38,445 nt of DNA from a virus, in the IMG/VR virus record IMGVR_UViG_3300012924_000005. One strand, 5' to 3'. The notes under the pieces were generated by a model, which was not told the DNA's origin, made no database searches, and saw only the letters and a program-made list of their open reading frames with translations. The number at the start of each line of letters is the position of its first letter. Within the stretch, counting starts at the first letter, position 1. A program made the translations under genes and the position numbers. Shown in pieces: positions 1,237 to 32,437 of the stretch.

Positions 1237-3618
1237 TCAGAATGCAAGTGTAATTGCCTCTTGAGTGAGGCCGAGAACGGCTGGTCGCCATAGTGTCATT
1301 GGGCTGCCGGCATGGATCGGGCCGATCGTTGCGTCTACGGTGAGGGTCTGCTGACCGGCAGAGTATGCGCTCACAGCCGTGACGTGCACCTTAAATCCAC
1401 TCAGCACAACGTCGCATGGCATGTCGTCGGCAGTGGTTGAGATGCGAATGCCCAGCCCCAGGGGATCCACGTTCATCACGATGGAGGTTGATCCTGCCGG
1501 ATACTCCCCGCTGACCGCAGTGTCGCTTGACTGAGCCTCGAATCGCATAGCGAATTCGTTGGTATCCCCGGTGGTTGCAACGTATTGCCCCACTCGCCAC
1601 GGCGCATAGGGGGTATTGTTGAGAGCTATGCTCCATAGTTTCGAATTGAAATGTTCACTGTATCCCTGCACTAGCAGTGACAGCGCGTCATTTGAGAATC
1701 CGAATACCGAGATAAGGTTGCTTATCTCAATACGGCTAAGCGGTGACATGTCCAACCATGCTTGCCGTAGAGTCGCATTCGCGGCCTTGGCGAGTTCGAC
1801 ATGGATGGCGGGGTACCGCGCCTCGTTGGCCGTGCCGAGCCCCACCTCAAACTGCGCCCTGCCATACAGCGCATTGTCATTCAGGAAGTTGTAGGACGCC
1901 GAACTTGAGTATTCATTGATACCGTTAGGGCCAGATCCCATCGGACTTGTGACGTCACGAGCCGTGACGCTAGAGCCATGTTGCCGCGAGGCGGTGAACT
2001 TGTTTACGTGCCCCTGGTCGCCGGGCATGGGGATCAGTGGGTACTGAACCTGTCCACCTGCCGCATTAAGCGTAAGACTGCTAGCGCGATCTTCGATAGC
2101 GCTCCGGGCAATGTATGTATACCCGGGTCCCATGCCGTCGAGCAACAACCCTCCATCCGCACGCGCGCAACCTTTGAGAATGTTGAGGAACGTATCTATT
2201 TCTTGCGCGCCTAGCGTTAGATAAATATCAGATCTTCCTACAACATCGATATGCACATTCTCTTCTGCGCATATACGACGTATTCTTTCGGTGGGTTTCT
2301 CGATACCAGAGAATGCGAGCAAATAGAAATAGTCGCCGGGGACCCCGAAAAGAGGAAAGCCGAGACTCAAATCAACATCTACGCTAGTGAGTGCACCCAT
2401 GTGGCCAAACAACATATTATCTGTTTGGGCCGTTGTTAGAAGATGCAAGCTACGCAGGCGTCCCAATGTTTGAGCAGCTTCATTGTTAGCGCCTCCCCCG
2501 AATCCCGCTGAGGGACTGGCCATATCCCATGACCAATATAGCGATGTGCCAGATTGATACGTCTGAACATCAATAAAAAACGTAATCCCTGGGAGCGGGA
2601 CTCCACCCCCAGGATCACTTAAGTGATTGACTCCAGCATCATCTAGCGCCTGTAGCTGAAACACGGCACTAGCGTTTACCCACTGCAAGCGCCAATTATT
2701 ATACGTGCCACCTTCTGTCTTCCAGGAAAAGATCGTCGTATCCGCCGATAGCGTTGTTTGTAATTGCATGACAAATTGCATGCGCCATTGCTGGGGCGAT
2801 GGCGACGTATAGACTGGCAACGTCTGATTAAATCCTGCGCCATTGGCGAATGCCGGGATGCCCGCCGTTCCGGGCGCCTCCGCGCTTGACGCCCATGTCA
2901 CCGTGCCGAAGGGCACGATAGACTCATGTCCAAAAAACTCAACAGCTGATGTAGACGACGTACCGTCTTCCATGGGCCAATACCGAATAATTGCAGCAAC
3001 ATTAGCATCGAAAAACTGTGCCTGTGTCGAAACCCCACGCGTCATCGGAGAGCGAAGCGGATCGGTGCCCTGGCCATGTCGACGCGAGATACCAGAAGCC
3101 TCAATGTCGCATACCGCATAGCGACGCGATGCATCCCAACGTGGCGCAAACCCGTTGCTCACCTCGCCCTGAAAGCGCAGCGACGCTCCGTTGCCCATGT
3201 CCAGCAAGACCCGCACGGGTACGCCTAGCTTGATGCCGGGGTACCACTTGCTGAATGCGTTGAATGGAGTGAAGTCTCCAGTGAAATTCTTCACAGTAAA
3301 CTTGCACTGCGCGGGGGCCGGGCTGTCGTTGAACTCGTCTTGCCGGCCCATCGGGTTGATACTCACGCCGGGCTCCCACAGCGCCAGCGACGTGATGTCC
3401 ACCCACGGCCAATAGCCGGGGTCACCCGTGAGGTCTGCGCCCGGTGCGATCTCGATGATCTGCCGCGCGGTTGGCCCCATCGAGTCAGGCAGGAACGCGC
3501 CGCCCCGCAGCGAAGCGCCCTGCGGCGCTCCCTGTGGAATGCCACTCAGGCCCGGCGGCCAACCCGAAGCGCTGATACGCGAGGAGATCATCGCGGCCAT
3601 CCGCGACGCGGCGCTCAC
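1237..3618 (-). CDS. minor tail protein, Dit-like N-terminus with a large C-terminal extension (candidate receptor-binding part)
   Basis: 793-aa ORF downstream of the tape measure. The N-terminal stretch RQIIEIAPGADLTGDPGYWPWVDITS resembles siphovirus distal tail proteins. The start is uncertain (GTG 3618 or a later ATG). Confidence 0.8.
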   Translation of the reverse strand: MSAASRMAAMISSRISASGWPPGLSGIPQGAPQGASLRGGAFLPDSMGPTARQIIEIAPGADLTGDPGYWPWVDITSLALWEPGVSINPMGRQDEFNDSPAPAQCKFTVKNFTGDFTPFNAFSKWYPGIKLGVPVRVLLDMGNGASLRFQGEVSNGFAPRWDASRRYAVCDIEASGISRRHGQGTDPLRSPMTRGVSTQAQFFDANVAAIIRYWPMEDGTSSTSAVEFFGHESIVPFGTVTWASSAEAPGTAGIPAFANGAGFNQTLPVYTSPSPQQWRMQFVMQLQTTLSADTTIFSWKTEGGTYNNWRLQWVNASAVFQLQALDDAGVNHLSDPGGGVPLPGITFFIDVQTYQSGTSLYWSWDMASPSAGFGGGANNEAAQTLGRLRSLHLLTTAQTDNMLFGHMGALTSVDVDLSLGFPLFGVPGDYFYLLAFSGIEKPTERIRRICAEENVHIDVVGRSDIYLTLGAQEIDTFLNILKGCARADGGLLLDGMGPGYTYIARSAIEDRASSLTLNAAGGQVQYPLIPMPGDQGHVNKFTASRQHGSSVTARDVTSPMGSGPNGINEYSSSASYNFLNDNALYGRAQFEVGLGTANEARYPAIHVELAKAANATLRQAWLDMSPLSRIEISNLISVFGFSNDALSLLVQGYSEHFNSKLWSIALNNTPYAPWRVGQYVATTGDTNEFAMRFEAQSSDTAVSGEYPAGSTSIVMNVDPLGLGIRISTTADDMPCDVVLSGFKVHVTAVSAYSAGQQTLTVDATIGPIHAGSPMTLWRPAVLGLTQEAITLAF

Positions 3619-4133: not shown

Positions 4134-6518
4134 CTAGTTGTTGAGAATGATCTTGCGCTCACGAATGAGCCTCATGAACATCACGGAAACCGCGCCGTCG
4201 GTATCGCCCGTGAATCGCACCTCAGTGCCACCGCCATTAATCATGACGGGAGCGACGTTCGGTACGGCTGACATCATTGCCTGCGATTGCCCCGAGGGGT
4301 ACACCATTGAGCCGTCTGGCAAGTTCACCAACTCAGGGCCATGCTCGCCTATGAGCGTCATGCCGCCACCCGGACCGCCGCTGGCCTGAGCCCGGATATT
4401 GCCACGCCCCTGAACGATGCCCGACCCCTGATTCTCAACGTAGTTTCGGCCGCTCCCTGTGACGAAAGTGTCAACTTGTACAGTCACCTTTTTGAGCGGG
4501 GGCAGTCCGTTAAGTAAACGCAGTAGATCGTTCAGGTTATTGATCGCGTCGGTCAGTCCTTGCGTGGCGATGTTCGTGTTTACCTTGTCGGGCACGGTGG
4601 CATACTTACCTACCAGCCCGTCAATCTGCGCTTGCGTCAATCCCGCCTGGCGCATCTGCCTTTCGAGCGCCTGCGTGTTCGCGTCGTATGCCTTGGCGGC
4701 AACGTCAGCTCCCGCGCCTGACGCGATGGCCACGTCGTATGCCTTAATGTTGGCATCCACCTGAGCCAGGATCGCCTCGCGGTTCGCCTGTCCTTTCTCG
4801 GTGTGGATGTCAAGCTGTTTGCCGTTCTGCTTGAACGAATCCGACACCTTCGTTAGGCTCTCCGCGACACCAAGTAGCGCGTGATCCGAGTCCATCATCG
4901 AGTTGAACAGCTTGTCCGACATCTCGCCCGCGAGCGTGTCGGCGGATTTAGACGTATCGCCCAGCTTCTTGGAGAGCGCATCGAGATCATCAGCAGCCTT
5001 TGCGGTAGCGGCTCCCGCGGTGCCCGTGGTCTTCGCCAGCGAGTCAAGGGCGTTCTGATATTGTGGCAGGCCTTTCTTCAGGTCCTCAACGCTGATGCCC
5101 TGTCGCTGCGCGGCGCGCGTCAACTCATCAAACTGACCCGCGGCTTCCTTGATGTTGCCGTTCGAGACCTCGTCCGCGAGTGCTGCATCGATCGAAGAGA
5201 TGCGTTCACGCGCATGCTCTAGCGACTCGTCAAATACGGACCCCAACCCCGTAAGCCCCTCGGCCACCCCCGCGATGGCGTTGCCGGTCTTCGCCATGCC
5301 GCCAGAGCCAAGCGTGCCGAGATCGTAATTCAGGTGCTTAGTTACCTCGGAGACGTTTTGTCCACTCGTGCCGAGCGCCTCAAGGGCCTTCTGGGTGGTG
5401 GCCACCCCGGTACTGTCGGTGTGGCCGAGCGCCGCGCTCGCGGTTTGCACGGCCACCATAGCGACCGCCACGATGCCCGCTGTGCGGGCCAGCTTGCCTA
5501 GCCGGGTGTCGGCGGCCAGTGCCCCCGTGGACAACCCGGAGAATGCCTCTCGGGCCGCCGTGATCCGGGGCGCCAGGAGCAGCGCCGCAGCAGCCAGCCC
5601 CAGCACCGCGACAATCAGCCCCTCGATCGGCCGCGGGATGGCCGCGAACGCCGTGGCCAGCAGCCCGGTGATCTTGGCAAGCTCCGCCAGGACCGGCAGC
5701 AGGCCGGTACCGATCTTCGCCTTGGCGTTCTCCATCTCCGCAGCCGAGATGCGCTGCGCGTTGGCAAGCCCGTTGCTCGTGTTCTTGAAATCGCCGGCCG
5801 TGGCGGAGGTCTGTTTCATGATCAGATTCAGCCGGGCCGAGGCCAGCTCCTGCGTGGTGAGAGCGTTGGCCGAGGTCTTGCTTGTCTCGGCCAGGGCCTC
5901 CGTCTGCACAGCCGCCGCACTCAGACTAACACCGTACTTCTCTAGCGGATCCGACTCGCCACGCAGACCAGCTTGAATCGACTCCAACGCATCGGGTACC
6001 GAGGTGTTGAATACCGATGCCATATCAGCGGCGCGCTGCGTGAGCATCAACGTGTCCGCGCTCACGGTCTTCATGTCAAGCCCGGTGTTCTTCAGTAGCG
6101 CACCCATGGGCGTAACGGCCTCGTTGAAGGCTCGCTGGCTCAGGCCGAACTGCGTAGCGTTGTTCTTCCCCCAGTCGAGAATCACCTTGGAGGATTGTCC
6201 AAATACCTGATTCACGGCGTTGGTAGATTCGCCCAGCGACGATGCCGCCTCCACCGTGCTGCTCATGAACTCCTTGACCTTAGCGGCCCCCTCTTTCAGG
6301 AAGTCCGCCGCGAGTACTCCGGCTGCTGTTTCGCCAATCCTCTTGAGCGATGACGACATACCGTCGGAGCTTGACTTGACTTTCGCTTCTGTCTTCGCGG
6401 ATTGATCACCAATCCCCTTGACCGAATCGGTAACCTGTTTTACTTTCTTGTCGGTGGCGTCGAACCCGGAGCCGGTCTTATCGGCACTCGTGACGACGAT
6501 CTGAATTTCGTTAGCCAT
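4134..6518 (-). CDS. tape measure protein
   Basis: 794 aa. It is Ala/Gly/Leu-rich and helical, with an internal hydrophobic block (LLATAFAAIPRPIEGLIVAVLGLAAAALLLAP). It sits after the chaperone, and GGGAGGGAG precedes the ATG. Confidence 0.9.
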   Translation of the reverse strand: MANEIQIVVTSADKTGSGFDATDKKVKQVTDSVKGIGDQSAKTEAKVKSSSDGMSSSLKRIGETAAGVLAADFLKEGAAKVKEFMSSTVEAASSLGESTNAVNQVFGQSSKVILDWGKNNATQFGLSQRAFNEAVTPMGALLKNTGLDMKTVSADTLMLTQRAADMASVFNTSVPDALESIQAGLRGESDPLEKYGVSLSAAAVQTEALAETSKTSANALTTQELASARLNLIMKQTSATAGDFKNTSNGLANAQRISAAEMENAKAKIGTGLLPVLAELAKITGLLATAFAAIPRPIEGLIVAVLGLAAAALLLAPRITAAREAFSGLSTGALAADTRLGKLARTAGIVAVAMVAVQTASAALGHTDSTGVATTQKALEALGTSGQNVSEVTKHLNYDLGTLGSGGMAKTGNAIAGVAEGLTGLGSVFDESLEHARERISSIDAALADEVSNGNIKEAAGQFDELTRAAQRQGISVEDLKKGLPQYQNALDSLAKTTGTAGAATAKAADDLDALSKKLGDTSKSADTLAGEMSDKLFNSMMDSDHALLGVAESLTKVSDSFKQNGKQLDIHTEKGQANREAILAQVDANIKAYDVAIASGAGADVAAKAYDANTQALERQMRQAGLTQAQIDGLVGKYATVPDKVNTNIATQGLTDAINNLNDLLRLLNGLPPLKKVTVQVDTFVTGSGRNYVENQGSGIVQGRGNIRAQASGGPGGGMTLIGEHGPELVNLPDGSMVYPSGQSQAMMSAVPNVAPVMINGGGTEVRFTGDTDGAVSVMFMRLIRERKIILNN

Positions 6519-14674: not shown

Positions 14675-14744
14675 TGCCCCCGGCCCGGCTCGAACGGGCT
14701 GCCACCCTGCTTACGAATCCCGCAAGGCATTCGTGGGCGGAGGC
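14675..14744 (-). ncRNA. tRNA-like element (non-canonical), 6 nt downstream of the major capsid stop
   Basis: On the minus strand: GCCTCCG, then 38 nt, then T-arm GCCCG-TTCGAGC-CGGGC, then CGGGGGC and A. The acceptor pairs 7/7 with one G-U. A 15-mer GGCAGCCCGTTCGAG is identical to the element at 31667-31736. Confidence 0.45.
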
Positions 14745-29655: not shown

Positions 29656-29732
29656 GGAAAGTTGTGGTCTGGATGGCAGTCATGTTCACTGCAATCTATG
29701 CTATTGCATTTATCGCGGGGTGGCACTCGTGA
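29652..29732 (+). CDS. micro-ORF, single-TM peptide (26 aa)
   Basis: ATGA overlap. MRKVVVWMAVMFTAIYAIAFIAGWHS*. Confidence 0.4.
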   Translation: MRKVVVWMAVMFTAIYAIAFIAGWHS

Positions 29733-29815
29733 GGGGGGTTCGCAACGGGCTGGTCATCACGTTGATCATCGCGGTGATCTTCATTGCTTGGCTGCATGGG
29801 AGCGGAAGGATATGA
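29729..29815 (+). CDS. micro-ORF, single-TM peptide (28 aa)
   Basis: GTGA overlap. VRGVRNGLVITLIIAVIFIAWLHGSGRI*. Its stop overlaps the next ATG (ATGA). Confidence 0.4.
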   Translation: MRGVRNGLVITLIIAVIFIAWLHGSGRI

Positions 29816-31044
29816 GCGACGACTTCGATTCGCCCCGACGTGTGTACGGGTTCGATCGCTTCGGGCGCCGGCTACTCCCGGTTCCGGGGGAAGATCCGAA
29901 CAACATCATCCCGTGGACCCGAGCGACGACACTCGCAAGCACGGTCGATGACATGTGGAACTTGCAGCAATGGCAGCTGCGGATGGTGGCGCACGGCATC
30001 GGTAAGCGGTCAGATCTGTATAGCTTAGCCGCTTCGCTCGATCCGGAAGACGATAAGGGCGATCTTCAGAAGGTCTGCAACGACGCGATGGAGGCGGCAG
30101 AAGCGCGAGCCGGAGCGAACATGGGCACCGCCCTGCACAGCTTCACGCATGTGCTTGATCGTGTGGGTGTTGTCTACGCGCCGGAGATGTGGCGCGGACA
30201 CCTTGACGTGTATCGGCGGGGCATGGACAGCACAAACTACTCGGTAGACCGCAACTTCATCGAGCGCGTGTGCGTCAATACGCAGATCAAGACGGCGGGA
30301 CAGTTCGATCGGCTGCTAAGGCCCCCCTTTTCGATCAAGGGCGAGTACATGATCGGCGACCTGAAGACCGAAAAGGGTGATTTCGAATACAGCATGCGCC
30401 GGATCGCAATTCAACTTGCGATCTACGCAAACTCCGACTTCATCTGGGACGCGGCCACCCACGTCTACGCCCCGATGCCGAGCATGGACCGCCAGGCCGC
30501 AATCGTGATGCACCTCCCGGCCACCGGCCCTCCCCGCTTCCAGCTCTACGAAGTGGACATCGCGGCGGGGTGGGAAGCGGTACAACTCGCGCTGGACGTG
30601 CGGACCTGGCGCAAGCGCAAGGGCTTGATGCGTCCCCTCGGCGTCGCGCTGGTCGGCGCGAAGACGGTGCTCGACATCGAGAACCCCACCACGGGCGAGC
30701 TTGACCCGATCGCATCCCCCCAACCGTCGGCTGGGCTGGTGCTCGTGGGCGAGAGCGGTCCCGAGTTGGTGCCTGCGGCCCCGGCAGAGCTGCCCCCGGG
30801 TGACGGGGTACCGGCGCCACCGGCGCCGGTGGAGGCCGTCTCAACGGATTGGGCCAGCTCATGGCTCCGCGCGGCCGAGGCGGGAGCGCTGGACGCGCGG
30901 GACTGGAGAGAACTGGCCGCGGGAGTCGACTCCCGAGAGGCAGCGAGCGCGCTGTGGCGGGCGGCAGTGAAGGCCGGCGCCTGGACGACGGAGCTGGAGA
31001 ACACGTGCAAGAAAGCTCTTGACAAGTCAATAGCTACTGCGTAG
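29812..31044 (+). CDS. PD-(D/E)xK nuclease, Cas4/RecB-like exonuclease
   Basis: GQFDRL...MIGDLKTEKG...IQLAIYA (D, DxK and QxxxY pattern). It starts at MSDDFDS; the upstream extension in the track has a non-coding third-position bias. Confidence 0.75.
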   Translation: MSDDFDSPRRVYGFDRFGRRLLPVPGEDPNNIIPWTRATTLASTVDDMWNLQQWQLRMVAHGIGKRSDLYSLAASLDPEDDKGDLQKVCNDAMEAAEARAGANMGTALHSFTHVLDRVGVVYAPEMWRGHLDVYRRGMDSTNYSVDRNFIERVCVNTQIKTAGQFDRLLRPPFSIKGEYMIGDLKTEKGDFEYSMRRIAIQLAIYANSDFIWDAATHVYAPMPSMDRQAAIVMHLPATGPPRFQLYEVDIAAGWEAVQLALDVRTWRKRKGLMRPLGVALVGAKTVLDIENPTTGELDPIASPQPSAGLVLVGESGPELVPAAPAELPPGDGVPAPPAPVEAVSTDWASSWLRAAEAGALDARDWRELAAGVDSREAASALWRAAVKAGAWTTELENTCKKALDKSIATA

Positions 31045-31047
31045 TGT
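31019..31047 (+). promoter_or_regulatory. possible promoter reading into the non-coding island
   Basis: TTGACA-N17-TAGTGT, overlapping the nuclease stop codon. Confidence 0.3.
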
Positions 31048-31052
31048 TTGAG

Positions 31053-31086
31053 GTGCGGGGAGGGACCGGGAAAGCCCTCCCCGCAC
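31053..31086 (+). terminator. 12-bp GC-rich hairpin after the nuclease gene
   Basis: GTGCGGGGAGGG-accgggaaag-CCCTCCCCGCAC, with no U-tract. Confidence 0.4.
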
Positions 31087-31124
31087 TGGGAGCCCTTGAC
31101 AACTACATGCATCTAGAAAGGCTA

Positions 31125-31301
31125 ATGATGGCATATCACGGCGAACACCGTGCCGAAGATCGCGGCGATGGGAAGCACGGCAGCAACGAGACTTCGGACA
31201 GCGCGAAGTCGGGACATGGCGGAAAGCATGACGCGGTACCGGCCACCGATCGCGGTCGGACCGACGCGGCAACGCTACTCGGACGGCGCAAGAGTAGCTA
31301 A
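31125..31301 (+). CDS. doubtful small ORF (58 aa, hydrophilic, low complexity)
   Basis: MMAYHGEHRAEDRGDGKHGSNE.... The RBS is weak (AAAGG). The antisense frame gives a TM-like 35-mer, so the coding strand is unresolved. Confidence 0.25.
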   Translation: MMAYHGEHRAEDRGDGKHGSNETSDSAKSGHGGKHDAVPATDRGRTDAATLLGRRKSS

Positions 31302-31395
31302 GACATTGATCACACCCTCGTGTCGCAGTCCCGCCGAACGGCGGCACAAGATCAGCGCGTTCTGATTCCGCGCTGGGTGGAAATGAATCAGGGTA

Positions 31396-31461
31396 GGGTG
31401 GACGGATTCGCCTCCCCAGGTATTGGATCCGACACGAGGGGTTCGACTCCCCTGCCACCCA
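31396..31461 (+). ncRNA. tRNA-like element 1 (non-canonical)
   Basis: GGGTGGA (also present at 31375) pairs 6/7 with GCCACCC. T-arm AGGGG-TTCGACT-CCCCT (31437-31453). In between there is a single long hairpin, 31403-31431. Confidence 0.4.
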
Positions 31462-31495
31462 CGAGCGTCGACGGGACCCTCAACCCGAGCGATGC

Positions 31496-31564
31496 CGAAC
31501 GTTGCGGTAAGGCGCGTCGATCTCTGGGGGGAGATCGAAGTGGGTTCAGGTCCCACGCGTTCGC
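31496..31564 (+). ncRNA. tRNA-like element 2 (non-canonical)
   Basis: Acceptor CGAACGT/GCGTTCG, with a U at position 8. A 3-bp D-like hairpin has GG in its loop. An 8-bp hairpin TCGATCTC-TGGGGG-GAGATCGA follows. T-arm GTGGG-TTCAGGT-CCCAC. Confidence 0.45.
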
Positions 31565-31666
31565 GTGTCCGGGGGCGTGCCCAGAGCACACTTCGCGTCC
31601 CCGGACACAACTGAATAGCTCGCGGGAACTGTCCGGATAGGGTCCGGGTCACACGAACCGCGAGCA

Positions 31667-31736
31667 CCTCATGCCCCGGGCGTGCACACACGAGTGCACA
31701 CGTGGAGGGCAGCCCGTTCGAGTCGGGCCATGAGGG
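31667..31736 (+). ncRNA. tRNA-like element A (non-canonical)
   Basis: Perfect 7-bp acceptor CCTCATG/CATGAGG. T-arm GCCCG-TTCGAGT-CGGGC (31712-31728). The 38-nt core has a GTGCAC-ACACGA-GTGCAC hairpin with a 6-nt loop. Confidence 0.5.
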
Positions 31737-31837
31737 CGAGGCAGTGACACATCGAACAGATGGCCGCTGAGCTGTGTCACGTAAGTCCTCTGGCTACCTC
31801 CTTCATCGATTGCGGTCGGTGATCGTAGGCGAGAACC

Positions 31838-31904
31838 TCCCATGCTCAGGGTGCGGTGAAATTCCGCCGGCAACGGACAGCCCGTTCAAGTCGGGCCATG
31901 GGGC
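31838..31904 (+). ncRNA. tRNA-like element B (paralog of A)
   Basis: TCCCATG/CATGGGG. T-arm GCCCG-TTCAAGT-CGGGC (31880-31896). The core holds GCGG-TGAAATT-CCGC and a CCG-GCAA-CGG tetraloop hairpin. The 5' flank GCGAGaACCTCCCATGC matches A (GCGAGcACCTCATGC). Confidence 0.45.
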
Positions 31905-31955
31905 GCAGTGCGTCACTCGGGTTGCAGAGGGGTCTGGGCCTGAGTTCACCTAAAC

Positions 31956-31987
31956 GGGGGGGTCGCGGTGGCGCACCGCGCGGCCCC
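31956..31987 (+). terminator. GC-rich hairpin closing the non-coding island
   Basis: Core CGCGGTG-gcg-CACCGCG, flanked by GGGG...CCCC. It lies 34 nt before the next ATG. Confidence 0.4.
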
Positions 31988-32020
31988 TCACCTACACAAC
32001 GAAACGAGGCGCAACGTATC

Positions 32021-32437
32021 ATGACCGATCCATTCAGCGACGCACGATCCGGGTTCATTACGGCCGAAGACTTTCAGGGGCGGTTGCTGCTTGTCGCGGT
32101 GACCGGGTTCGAGGCAAACCGTGAATCAACCATGAACCCCGGCAAGACGTTCGATACGATCATCGCGGACGTGACGGTACTCGACGGTCCGATCACTGAG
32201 ATGTTCGATCACATTCCAATGAAGATCGAGGGGCAGTACCTGTCCGGCTCCGGTCTCGTGCCGCAACTCAAGGGCAAGGTCGGCAAGGTGCATCCATCAA
32301 ATCAGATCCTCGGGCGCATGACGCAACGGCCGGCGCGGGTGACCGGCTTCAAGCCAGCCAACGTACTCGCCGAGCCGACCGACGCGGACAAGGTGACGGC
32401 GCGCGCGTACCTCGCAACACTCAACCCGTTCGAGTAG
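32021..32437 (+). CDS. hypothetical protein (138 aa)
   Basis: MTDPFSDARSGFITAEDFQGRLLLVAVTG.... The upstream part of the track ORF overlaps the structured RNA region. Confidence 0.7.
   Translation: MTDPFSDARSGFITAEDFQGRLLLVAVTGFEANRESTMNPGKTFDTIIADVTVLDGPITEMFDHIPMKIEGQYLSGSGLVPQLKGKVGKVHPSNQILGRMTQRPARVTGFKPANVLAEPTDADKVTARAYLATLNPFE

Follow-up and report, generated by a model that had tools for sequence, protein, structure and literature searches.

The DNA analysed here, 38,445 nt in length and referred to below as the window, comes from an uncultured phage whose putative hosts are actinobacteria. An earlier note on this DNA had described positions 31302 to 32020 as an array of four non-canonical tRNA-like elements, each built on an acceptor/T-arm minihelix and devoid of a decodable anticodon arm. 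This description was supported by our analysis, which also places the array upstream of a gene for an SSB-like protein.

Four tRNA-like elements in a non-coding island

The island is non-coding as far as can be determined, since an independent gene call on an identical contig placed no gene between the flanking 85-aa and 138-aa ORFs, and none of its mechanical ORFs matched a PHROG family. Four identical metagenome copies (L010-L013) showed no microvariation. Both strands of the window were searched with a regular expression for a 5-bp stem closing a TTCRNNT loop. On the plus strand, the search returned only four T-arms, all within 31437-31896 and exactly where they had been placed before (31437-31453, 31540-31556, 31712-31728, and 31880-31896), and on the minus strand it returned one. 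Dinucleotide-shuffled windows contained a mean of 0.1 such motifs, with both strands taken together, and a maximum of 2. The 7 nt that follow each T-arm do pair with an upstream 7-mer, at distances of 34, 37, 38, and 35 nt for the elements termed E1 to E4. Their lengths, including the discriminator, are 66, 69, 70, and 67 nt, which upholds the range of 66-70 nt given earlier, and none of the four encodes CCA, as had been noted.

31396-31461, plus strand: E1, D-armless tRNA-like element, found by the T-arm expression and the acceptor scan
31396-31402, 31403-31431, and 31437-31453, plus strand: 5' acceptor strand, long arm, and T-arm of E1
31454-31460 and 31461, plus strand: 3' acceptor strand and discriminator A of E1, followed by the trailer ACG
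31496-31564, plus strand: E2, cloverleaf-like element, T-arm at 31540-31556, acceptor paired at 7/7 positions
31667-31736, plus strand: E3, D-armless tRNA-like element, T-arm at 31712-31728, acceptor CCTCATG/CATGAGG
31838-31904, plus strand: E4, D-armless tRNA-like paralog of E3, T-arm at 31880-31896, acceptor TCCCATG/CATGGGG

With a fifth element described below (E5) included, acceptor pairing with G-U allowed is 6/7 in E1 and 7/7 in each of E2 to E5, and the T-stem is paired at 5/5 positions in all five. The T-loop follows the UUCRANY consensus of tRNAs everywhere except in E2, where it reads TTCAGGT with G instead of A at position 58. The D-arm is absent from E1, E3, E4, and E5. The claim that the core holds neither a D arm nor an anticodon arm was right for the anticodon arm and has to be amended for E2, which has a minimal 3-bp D-like hairpin (GCG GUAAGG CGC). 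No window element has a 5-bp anticodon stem with a 7-nt loop carrying U33 and a purine at position 37; the replacement arms comprise 4-9 bp, or are longer and irregular, and close with loops of 4-7 nt that lack the U33-NNN-R37 pattern.

The minimum-energy fold of E1 is the proposed structure (-30.7 kcal/mol), in which A7.G66 is the unpaired acceptor position. An 86-nt form of E1 that uses an alternative 5' strand at 31375 (GGGTGGA is present twice) was judged less likely. In E2, the place of the anticodon arm is taken by a 9-bp stem with a tetraloop, and the fold of -32.7 kcal/mol (z = -4.09) was equaled by 0 of 200 shuffles. The same held for E3 (-36.3 kcal/mol, z = -3.46; 0/200 shuffles as good), whose long irregular arm contains two GTGCACAC repeats. 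E4, the element closest to the downstream gene, ends 117 nt before its ATG; its core folds weakly (z = -0.29) and is thermodynamically unremarkable.

Covariance models do not score these elements as ordinary tRNAs: the window contains 0 ARAGORN genes and 0 Rfam gathering matches, and the best match to the Rfam clan, E1 as tRNA-Sec with 18.8 bits, is well below threshold. E2 was reported by ARAGORN as 'tRNA-??? (gg)' at lowered thresholds only. Rfam matches below threshold at permissive E-values (tRNA-Sec, Tymo_tRNA-like, scr5239, and P8) were at chance level, and ARAGORN runs at 85% thresholds, with or without introns, were discarded as unreliable after giving many calls, some of them inside coding regions. 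Antisense matches of the variable arms within the phage genome, at best an 11-mer and a 12-mer, were near chance and were rejected as a sign of function.

A fifth element after the major capsid gene

E5 lies on the opposite strand, outside the coordinates covered by the earlier note.

14675-14744, minus strand: E5, fifth tRNA-like element, in the 154-nt gap directly after the major capsid gene
14744-14738 and 14699-14683, minus strand: 5' acceptor strand GCCTCCG and T-arm of E5
14682-14676 and 14675, minus strand: 3' acceptor strand CGGGGGC and A73 of E5, then CG

It lies 6 nt past the capsid stop codon and is a copy with a new, fully paired acceptor in another, late operon. Its T-arm block is that of E3 except for one loop base. 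The tRNA-like fold has -33.4 kcal/mol and the minimum-energy fold, a different structure, -34.9 kcal/mol; the two are within 1.5 kcal/mol, and because they differ, E5 is less certain as a tRNA-like element than E1 to E4. Relatives of the capsid protein had no element after the capsid gene.

Syntenic slot in related phages and tRNA ancestry

The SSB-like gene is preceded, at a distance of 45-180 nt, by a tRNA or tRNA-like element in 11 relatives with DNA sequence, and the proximal element is tightly linked to this gene; no such element was found before the gene in at least L178, nor in DS6A and TP1604, which are cultured phages. A scan for a T-arm with a 7/7 acceptor across ~0.96 Mb of related phage loci gave matches in the syntenic tRNA slot only. 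The occupants of this slot form a graded series from canonical tRNAs to D-armless forms. Canonical tRNAs are found in L091 (Pro and Arg) and L023 (Met). Two further loci have a tRNA body whose anticodon arm is enlarged by 28-32 nt into a long hairpin (L001 6027-6128, 48.3 bits; L300 811-903, 41.8 bits), and both score above the Rfam RF00005 gathering threshold of 29 bits. The D-armless forms of 64-70 nt comprise E1, E3, and E4 of the window and the elements of L174, L175, and L177. This synteny, with canonical tRNAs on the one hand and tRNAs above the covariance-model threshold on the other, shows that the window elements derive from tRNAs.

The trailer of A73 followed by CG, with CCA not encoded, recurs in most relatives. 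The orthologs in L175, L177, and L300 retain G3:U70 together with A73 while neighboring pairs change, and the window copies are without G3:U70. G3:U70 with A73 is the identity set of AlaRS.

Selection on the acceptor and T-arm

E3 and E4, which are paralogs, agree at 26/29 positions (90%) of the T-arm plus 3' acceptor strand, compared with 12/33 in the core and 36-43% in core plus flanks, and one acceptor pair has changed in a compensatory way (T3-A70 in E3, C3-G70 in E4). Compensatory change between copies, which had been claimed for the whole array, holds for these true paralogs and not for E1 and E2, which are unrelated in sequence. L175 and L300, compared across orthologous flanks, differ by two compensatory acceptor pairs, three compensatory T-stem pairs, the loss of the D-arm, and large core indels. 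In a set of 20 elements, pairing holds in 95.8% of cells and covariation in 11 of the 12 pairs, figures that are descriptive since the set was partly chosen by pairing; G53-C61 is invariant across this set and the loop fits the T-loop consensus. Homologous phages have structural equivalents at the same position with compensatory substitutions, and the stems do not decay as fast as loops and flanks, as they would in a neutral pseudogene. Only the top half, that is, the acceptor stem and the T-arm, is under selection.

A family of T-arm blocks in other phages

The 21-nt block GCAGCCCGTTCGAGTCGGGCC of E3 is common to E4, E5, and 37 sites in 36 IMG/VR loci, none of which was called as a tRNA. Since the sites were found only through a 20-nt T-arm block, a test of their acceptors is independent of ascertainment. 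A perfect 7-nt acceptor-like partner was present at 20 of the 36 testable sites, compared with a mean of 4.3 (maximum 9) in shuffled strands, and this excess supports the acceptor stem; the family sites have 30 different acceptor sequences. The smallest members, of 44-50 nt, are without room for an anticodon arm, and four members abut a Shine-Dalgarno sequence and start codon. The earlier argument against random decay is strengthened by this family and by the top-half identity of E3 and E4. Phages of 46-71% G+C share a T-arm sequence that hardly varies, which suggests a sequence-specific partner rather than recognition of mere shape. A near-invariant GG upstream of the T-arm could, by analogy with G18 and G19 of tRNAs, dock on the T-loop. 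E3, E4, and E5 are members of an apparently undescribed motif family shared with dozens of other phage contigs.

Annotated tRNA-Lys genes of actinophages match the block in their T-arm and acceptor end, with ~88-92% identity over 24-26 nt. Among cultured phages, the sole clear intergenic near-match was found in prophiT49-3 and is ambiguous; a match in Attoomi was rejected, as it is not a hairpin. The GTGCACAC palindrome, which E3 shares with L001B and L002C, shows no enrichment in the window, where 4 copies were counted and 2 expected, and gave random matches only in a scan of the collection.

Flanking hairpins and neighboring genes

Structured hairpins directly flank the elements, and the island belongs to the replication module.

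29662-31301, plus strand: upstream genes, a Cas4/RecB-like exonuclease (29662-31044) and an 85-aa ORF (31044-31301)
31565-31665, plus strand: structured spacer between E2 and E3, -58 kcal/mol, z = -4.98, 0/200 shuffles as good
31744-31780, plus strand: hairpin after E3 (GUGACACA...UGUGUCAC), within a ~168-nt unit duplicated between E3 and E4
31911-31989, plus strand: two hairpins (~31911-31945 and ~31957-31989) between E4 and the start codon, z = -2.07
32021-32437, plus strand: SSB-like gene, 138 aa, phrog_870, PHROG match at 2.2e-11

Within the spacer, a 15-bp hairpin (31565-31608) abuts the 3' end of E2 and a second one (31618-31665) abuts the 5' end of E3; the spacer has no U-tract and received no terminator call, and a promoter and terminator search of the island gave nothing convincing. 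The two hairpins at 31911-31989 would be in the leader of the downstream mRNA. The product of the 138-aa gene, whose homologs were aligned, carries DPF motifs at both termini. Its AlphaFold model (pLDDT 84.7) gave weak Foldseek matches to SSB, PriB, and PRD1 P12 (E >= 0.14), and the protein is probably an OB-fold ssDNA-binding protein. The upstream exonuclease matches phrog_466 at 3.7e-57 and has actinophage homologs annotated as 'Cas4 family exonuclease'. The Pfam and PHROG searches of the scanned ORFs detected no tRNA-related enzyme, toxin, or antitoxin in the window, and no integrase was found among these ORFs. When the island and its 13-kb surroundings were compared by blastn with 50,697 genomes of cultured phages, no match was returned. 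Single-protein scans of IMG/VR with the SSB-like protein found nothing, and a genome-contig scan with the exonuclease found three loci, none with elements.

Proposed non-decoding processing modules and alternative explanations

In the explanation that we regard as the best, and to which we give about half of our belief, the elements are tRNA-derived non-decoding modules that would be excised by RNase P and RNase Z and would punctuate transcripts. What selection has preserved is the top half, a 7-bp acceptor stem stacked on a canonical T-arm, with the D-arm lost or vestigial and the anticodon arm swapped for a closed hairpin of arbitrary sequence. We infer that the island is transcribed within an early replication operon and E5 within a late one, and each element would then fold into an acceptor/T minihelix, the part of a tRNA that is recognized by RNase P, RNase Z, and the CCA-adding enzyme. 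Host RNase P would cut at each 5' end and a 3' activity past the discriminator, and CCA addition may follow. Such processing would do two things: the polycistronic RNA would be punctuated, giving the SSB-like mRNA a defined leader and the capsid mRNA a defined 3' end with the flanking hairpins remaining as protective ends, and stable ~65-70-nt RNAs that are unable to decode would be released. Punctuation is favored by the hairpins at the borders of the elements and by the location of tRNA-like structures at mRNA boundaries, as seen for E4 and its counterparts in 11 relatives, for E5, and for the four IMG/VR members next to start codons. Against it, one processing site would suffice, and neither an array of four nor the maintained E3/E4 duplicate is explained by punctuation alone. 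The T-loop of E2 without A58 and the unremarkable thermodynamics of the E4 core and the E5 tRNA-like fold also count against it, as do the near-invariance of the T-arm sequence, the promoter and terminator search of the island with its lack of a convincing result, and DS6A and TP1604, which have the same gene yet lack the element.

Several copies with different acceptors in one genome, placed in early and late operons, would be expected if the released RNAs themselves were the selected product, and it is tentatively possible that the excised, CCA-tailed minihelices are trans-acting tRNA mimics that serve as decoys, sponges, or inhibitors of enzymes that read acceptor ends or T-arms. The processing steps would be the same as for punctuation, with the selected function placed in the released RNA. 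Candidate targets are defense enzymes of the host, namely MenT/AbiEii-type nucleotidyltransferase toxins, CapRel-type pyrophosphokinases, and nucleases of tRNA tails such as Cas12a3; the RNAs of some relatives might instead be aminoacylated for non-ribosomal use. The maintained E3/E4 duplicate, the retention of G3:U70 with A73 in three relatives, the near-invariance of the T-arm across diverse phages, and the fast compensatory change of acceptors between close relatives, as an arms race would predict, all fit trans action. Defense nucleases that need just an acceptor stem and tail exist, and one cleaves synthetic mimics of these parts (PMC12851939); phage tRNAs are known counter-defense tools (PMC10264068; PMC12445682). 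However, G3:U70 is missing from the window elements, the searches of the window turned up neither a tRNA-directed toxin or antitoxin nor a tRNA enzyme, a stoichiometric decoy would be inefficient against an enzyme unless binding were tight, and the strict position before one gene or a Shine-Dalgarno sequence fits a role in cis better. A broader form of the idea, which we consider possible though rather doubtful, concerns a minihelix family of phages of GC-rich bacteria, reduced to as little as 44-50 nt and built from an acceptor stem, a near-invariant T-arm, and the conserved GG, that would act in trans as acceptor-end mimics after CCA addition. Its members could be sponges or inhibitors of immune enzymes directed at tRNA 3' ends or acceptor stems, or could be aminoacylated, as G3:U70 hints.

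The canonical tRNAs in the relatives' slot and the graded series leading to the minimal form are also what a dying tRNA cluster would leave behind, as pseudogenes with arms recognizable by chance. The core of E4 and the T-loop of E2 look degenerate, and broken copies would be missed by scans that demand intact T-stems. Neutral decay is nevertheless unlikely, given that stems are kept paired by compensation between genomes with only 41-55% protein identity and with unalignable intergenic DNA, that replacement arms are stable helices (z = -4.1 and -3.5), that E5 with its new acceptor sits in another operon, and that covarying partners accompany the T-arm block at its 37 IMG/VR sites far more often than in shuffled controls. 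The near-invariant block, intergenic in operons on both strands and in multiple copies per genome, might also be a hairpin bound by a protein, such as a nut/boxB-like antitermination site or an operator in RNA or DNA, with GCCCG-UUCGAGY-CGGGC as the functional unit and its tRNA likeness incidental. We find this quite improbable: the flanking 7-bp helix covaries, G53-C61 is invariant within a loop of T-loop consensus, the block resembles the 3' part of actinophage tRNA-Lys, E1, E2, and the relatives' elements have the same architecture with other T-arm sequences, and syntenic elements score as tRNA. That the elements do decode, as genuine tRNAs with unusual anticodon arms or with short introns removed by a novel pathway, would be suggested by ARAGORN, which reads L004 5562-5634 as a tRNA with a 4-base anticodon and, in intron mode, L001 6027-6129 as tRNA-His(GTG) with a 28-nt intron. 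To our knowledge, bacteria have no splicing machinery for such short introns, G-1 and C73, by which tRNA-His is recognized, are missing from the L001 element, the window arms close with 4-6-nt loops without U33-NNN-R37, and family members of 44-50 nt cannot accommodate an anticodon arm, which makes decoding very improbable. The intron reading of L001B was likewise judged less likely. Equally slight is the chance of a function at the DNA level, as leftover attachment-site copies of a tRNA 3' end or as a replication origin. The 29-nt direct repeat of E3 and E4 does consist of the T-arm and 3' acceptor strand, the part typically duplicated by integration, and the island does sit in the replication module; yet each copy has its own matching 5' strand at a tRNA-like distance with compensatory change, the scanned ORFs include no integrase, and the elements keep one orientation relative to local transcription.

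Comparison with known systems

The elements share with canonical phage tRNAs (RF00005) the 7-bp acceptor, the 5-bp T-stem with G53-C61, the T-loop consensus, and a discriminator that is often A73, and with canonical phage tRNA clusters the absence of an encoded CCA, the clustering in an intergenic slot, and real tRNAs at the relatives' position. In contrast to canonical tRNAs, those of the window have no 7-nt anticodon loop and no or a vestigial D-arm, measure 66-70 nt, and are unable to decode. Mitochondrial tRNA punctuation and the MALAT1 mascRNA are cases in which tRNA or tRNA-like structures serve as RNase P and RNase Z processing signals. The same is true of plant-mitochondrial t-elements, tRNA-like structures that act as processing signals (PMC1920247). 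The phage elements resemble these systems in having an acceptor/T structure at an mRNA boundary, a non-decoding product, and a conserved position rather than a conserved core sequence. They differ in that the known systems are organellar or eukaryotic, in forming an array of four rather than one element per boundary, and in that their cleavage is predicted. We know of no bacteriophage system of tRNA-like processing punctuation.

A likeness to the tRNA-like domain of tmRNA had been proposed, and it holds for the architecture and not beyond it. Both have an acceptor and T-arm without anticodon and D-stem, with D-loop-like G residues possibly contacting the T-loop, and three relatives (L175, L177, and L300) have G3:U70 with A73, a combination also present in tmRNA. 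Unlike tmRNA, the elements have no mRNA-like frame and no pseudoknots, and the connecting helix is a closed hairpin of 15-40 nt; the ARAGORN tmRNA search and Rfam were negative, and the window elements lack G3:U70. Nor do they belong with the tRNA-like structures of plant viruses (RF00233), for which E1 scored 19 bits against a threshold of 40; its acceptor is an ordinary helix, in a DNA phage. Virus-encoded non-decoding tRNA-like RNAs that are processed by the tRNA machinery include the vtRNAs (TMERs) of murid gammaherpesvirus 68 (MHV68), which are followed by hairpins, and the stable 'species 1 and 2' RNAs of phage T4, which lie within its tRNA cluster. These belong to another host domain or have other sizes, show no sequence relationship to our elements, and in the case of MHV68 keep the full cloverleaf.

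The relatives' long forms are built like engineered tRNA scaffolds, as a tRNA body with the anticodon arm swapped for an arbitrary hairpin, and the 44-50-nt forms are essentially the minihelices used in vitro, with an internal loop. Those constructs are artificial, and the literature searched contained no report of a natural phage counterpart. YrlA (RF02553) and the Bacillus cereus pseudo-tRNA 'tRNA-Other' are RNAs of bacterial or phage origin that do not decode and that imitate parts of tRNA (PMC4201824, PMC3399842). The topology of YrlA is the opposite, however, with a closed acceptor-like stem and a Ro-binding stem made by the two RNA ends, and tRNA-Other keeps a full cloverleaf. The window had no Rfam match to YrlA and no Ro60-like gene among the ORFs scanned, and L300 reached only 15 bits (threshold 69).

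Significance

Standard annotation with ARAGORN and Rfam at curated thresholds misses these elements, and such elements are therefore probably under-counted. With the 20-nt T-arm block alone, 37 sites without annotation were recovered from 36 IMG/VR loci, a sufficient starting point for a covariance model and a testable RNA family. The usual explanations for tRNA genes in phages are codon supply or the replacement of host tRNAs destroyed by defense nucleases. The elements described here are unable to decode, yet the top half of the tRNA has been conserved in them by compensatory evolution. Action in trans would make them a new class of RNA-based anti-defense, tRNA decoys rather than replacement tRNAs, directed against the growing list of defenses aimed at tRNA acceptor ends. 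As processing signals, they would be a bacteriophage counterpart of mitochondrial tRNA punctuation and a different solution from that of T7, which uses RNase III sites.

Four tRNA-like elements in the non-coding island

The four T-arms that the earlier note had reported in the non-coding island (31302-32020) were found in the window sequence at exactly its positions. A regular expression for a 5-bp stem with a TTCRNNT loop matched only these four on the plus strand and one on the minus strand, compared with 0.1 on average and at most 2 in dinucleotide-shuffled windows. The claimed acceptor stems were likewise borne out: the 7 nt 3' of each T-arm pair with a 7-mer lying 34, 37, 38, and 35 nt upstream of the T-arm in E1 to E4, respectively.

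tRNA-like elements of the island (T-arm match plus acceptor pairing)
31396-31461, plus strand: E1, acceptor pairing 6/7
31496-31564, plus strand: E2, acceptor pairing 7/7
31667-31736, plus strand: E3, acceptor pairing 7/7
31838-31904, plus strand: E4, acceptor pairing 7/7

The proposed structures of all four are minimum-energy folds. E2 (z = -4.1) and E3 (z = -3.5) were matched in stability by 0 of 200 shuffles, whereas the fold of E1 was marginal against shuffles (z = -1.9) and that of E4 could not be told apart from shuffles (z = -0.3). Two of the searches proposed in the earlier note were negative in the window, with no tRNA or tmRNA called by ARAGORN and nothing returned by Rfam at curated thresholds; the best permissive Rfam matches were to tRNA-Sec (18.8 bits for E1 and 15.3 bits for E2). 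An identical contig carries no gene call in the island, mechanical ORFs there match no PHROG family, and four metagenome assemblies contain identical copies of the island. The original observation is confirmed.

A 19-nt imperfect direct repeat at 31363-31402 (TGATTCCGCGCTGGGTGGA / TGAATCAGGGTAGGGTGGA) doubles the 5' acceptor strand of E1 and thus permits an alternative 86-nt reading of this element. An 11-nt perfect complement, CCCTCGTGTCG / CGACACGAGGG, links the region upstream of E1 (31315-31325) with its linker and 5' T-stem (31430-31440); it could compete with the E1 T-arm or be due to chance (~0.1-0.2 expected by our own estimate). The palindromic (U)GUGCACAC occurs in the arm replacing the anticodon arm, twice in E3 (31682-31701) and in the related-phage elements L001B (~6059-6068) and L002C (~6339-6349); it is unenriched in the genome (4 copies versus 2 expected), and its sharing across lineages is of borderline significance.

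The E2-E3 spacer (31565-31665) folds very stably (-58 kcal/mol, z = -5.0) into two hairpins, one of them 15 bp long, which adjoin the ends of E2 and E3 and lack a U-tract. Sequences just before E2 (31481-31495) and just after E4 (31910-31924) are complementary at 13 of 15 positions, a statistically non-significant arrangement that recalls a long-range processing stem. In the related loci L001 (5679-5715) and L002 (5790-5826), a strong conserved sigma-70-like promoter, TTGACAcc-17 nt-TATAGT, directly precedes the tRNA-like elements; a search of the window gave no equivalent.

A fifth element and a wider IMG/VR family

A relaxed scan detected a further element, which begins 6 nt past the stop codon of the major capsid gene:

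14744-14675, minus strand: E5, acceptor pairing 7/7 (GCCTCCG/CGGGGGC)

The T-arm block of E5 differs from that of E3 by one loop base and is also common to E4; E5 lay outside both the earlier list and the regular expression because its T-loop ends in C. The block GCAGCCCGTTCRAGYCGGGCC has 3 copies in the window versus 0.02 expected. The tRNA-like fold of E5 lies 1.5 kcal/mol above a competing fold, and E5 is therefore less secure than E1-E4.

An exact IMG/VR search with the 20-nt block CAGCCCGTTCRAGYCGGGCC yielded 37 sites in 36 loci (L326-L361) on phage contigs of 46-71% G+C, with no tRNA called by ARAGORN at any of the 37. Since these sites were retrieved by the hairpin alone, the flanking helix provides an independent test. 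A perfect 7-nt partner was present within 100 nt upstream at 20 of the 36 testable sites, compared with a mean of 4.3 and a maximum of 9 for shuffled 3' strands and 2 for a downstream control 7-mer. The sites comprise 30 different acceptor sequences, and their 7-bp flanking helices covary. Total lengths are 44-126 nt; the minimal forms are reduced to the T-arm and a 7-bp helix plus a 12-19-nt middle segment in which a GG is near-invariant. The genes 3' of these members are diverse early genes, including those for PrimPol, small DNA-binding-like proteins, and a Q/P-rich protein. Four members have a Shine-Dalgarno sequence almost directly 3' of the element's 3' strand. Among cultured phages, the block comes closest to annotated tRNA-Lys genes, with 88-92% identity across 24-26 nt, suggesting that it derives from a tRNA-Lys; no clear family member was found in cultured phages. 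The 37 sites look like an undescribed RNA motif family.

tRNA origin of the elements

The window (~63% G+C) is apparently a complete ~38.4-kb siphovirus genome, with the terminase, portal, protease, major capsid, major tail, and tape-measure genes on the minus strand and a replication module (PrimPol/AAA protein, helicase, and Cas4/RecB-like exonuclease) on the plus strand. It has no DNA-level match among cultured phages. We infer an actinobacterial host because the exonuclease has homologs in genomes of Micromonospora and Acidimicrobiia and in phages of Mycobacterium, Streptomyces, and Gordonia.

The exonuclease and the 138-aa protein encoded directly downstream of the island served as anchors for gathering relatives from IMG/VR, JGI metagenomes, and Logan assemblies. 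Scanning ~0.96 Mb of their loci for a T-arm with a perfect acceptor gave matches only in the slot that separates the exonuclease module from the 138-aa gene, and one element lies 45-180 nt before this gene in 11 relatives with available DNA. The contents of the slot form a graded series from canonical tRNA to the D-armless form.

Slot contents in related phages
L091: canonical tRNAs, Pro and Arg
L023: canonical tRNA, Met, with a CUCAUAA anticodon loop
L001 6027-6128: full tRNA body, anticodon arm longer by 28-32 nt, 48.3 bits
L300 811-903: full tRNA body, anticodon arm longer by 28-32 nt, 41.8 bits
L023 4559-4653: long-anticodon-arm tRNA body of the same kind
L004 5562-5634: 73-nt form, 7-bp stem with 6-nt loop, ARAGORN 'tRNA-???'
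L174, L175, L177, L301: D-armless, 64-70 nt, window-like

The long-arm elements of L001 and L300 exceed the Rfam tRNA threshold of 29 bits. From this graded series, we conclude that the elements are descended from tRNAs.

The alanine identity set, G3:U70 plus A73, is kept in the orthologs L175 1685-1751, L177 3358-3422, and L300 811-903, with variation in the adjacent acceptor pairs; these elements might be chargeable by AlaRS. G3:U70 is absent from the window's own elements. A trailer of A73 followed by CG recurs in E1, E5, L001A/B, L002C, L023, L174, L175, L177, L299, L300, and many IMG/VR sites. CCA is never encoded, as the earlier note had stated for the island.

Selection on the acceptor stem and T-arm

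E3 and E4 are paralogs, each part of a duplicated unit of ~168 nt that also takes in a downstream hairpin. Their identity is 26/29 in the T-arm and 3' acceptor strand, 5/7 in the 5' strand, 12/33 in the core, and 41-43% in the flanks, and the T3-A70 pair of E3 is replaced by C3-G70 in E4, a compensatory change. L175 and L300 are orthologous, since their flanks align; a complete D-arm and a 13-bp arm are present in L300 and neither in L175, and compensatory substitutions separate their acceptors (GT/AC versus CC/GG) and three T-stem pairs. The T-stems of L001 and L002 display a like pattern (CATGG/CCATG versus CGTGG/CCACG). Across 20 elements, 95.8% of cells are paired, 11 of 12 pairs include double changes, and G53-C61 is invariant; these figures are descriptive and no test because the set was partly selected by pairing. 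Overall, these comparisons, several of which use two or three sequences, provide evidence for selection on the top half (acceptor stem and T-arm) only; the scans demand intact T-stems and would miss degraded copies.

The downstream SSB-like gene

The product of the 138-aa gene (32021-32437) belongs to phrog_870, and the homolog alignment shows a DPF motif at each terminus (N-terminal MTDPF, C-terminal DPFA). Its AlphaFold model is confident (pLDDT 84.7), and Foldseek matches to the model are weak (E of at least 0.14) and thematically consistent, namely, OB-fold ssDNA-binding proteins (SSB, PriB, and PRD1 P12). The window product is, with low certainty, SSB-like, and its family probably represents phage ssDNA-binding proteins that carry an acidic tail motif. 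In four relatives, the last ~30 nt before the start codon of this gene contain U-poor ACAGA/ACAGG repeats without an obvious Shine-Dalgarno sequence (L175 1770-1797, L300 ~920-945, L177 ~3470-3500, and L299 ~2980-3000), which may form an unstructured translation-initiation region. In Mycobacterium phage DS6A (L305, NC_023744.1 49300-50502), the SSB-like gp72 has no tRNA-like leader, and gp76, four genes downstream, is annotated as 'tRNA splicing ligase'.

Comparison with known systems and possible functions

Full-text literature searches turned up no account of phage tRNA top-half elements that lack an anticodon, and a large survey of structured RNAs in viruses refers to 'tRNA or tRNA-like' candidates in general terms only (PMC10690425). 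Unlike canonical tRNAs, the elements have no D-arm or anticodon arm; their scores fall short of the covariance-model threshold, and ARAGORN rejects them. Nor did they qualify as tmRNA, plant-virus tRNA-like structures, or YrlA when tested for each. The tRNA-like domain of tmRNA and engineered tRNA scaffolds and minihelices are nearest in architecture; the nearest functional analogues, given the function proposed here, would be the t-elements of plant mitochondria and tRNA punctuation.

The conserved part of the elements is the acceptor/T-arm coaxial helix, which in tRNA maturation is recognized by RNase P, RNase Z, and the CCA-adding enzyme; the position of the elements is conserved relative to genes and not to the core. 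The conserved GG could dock on the T-loop like G18/G19. Our best reading, which we consider about equally likely to be right or wrong, is that the elements are self-excising tRNA-like modules: host tRNA-processing enzymes would remove them from early and late polycistronic RNAs, and this excision would set mRNA ends and free stable RNAs unable to decode. Neutral decay is improbable, and a protein-binding hairpin with an incidental likeness to tRNA is still less so; decoding tRNAs with introns and a DNA-level att or ori feature are each very improbable. These four rank below both the excision reading and a role in trans.

The main rival to the excision reading, a role in trans, would involve the same processing, with the selected function residing in the freed RNAs, which would imitate tRNA acceptor ends or serve as decoys for them. 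We regard it as somewhat unlikely. It is favored by the four-element array with its maintained duplicate, the acceptor stems that change rapidly through compensatory substitution, the near-invariant T-arm sequence in diverse phages, and the G3:U70 and A73 retained by three relatives. A mimic or decoy function of these phage RNAs would be topical, as defence systems targeting tRNA tails and arms have now come to light (PMC12851939, PMC12445682, PMC10264068).
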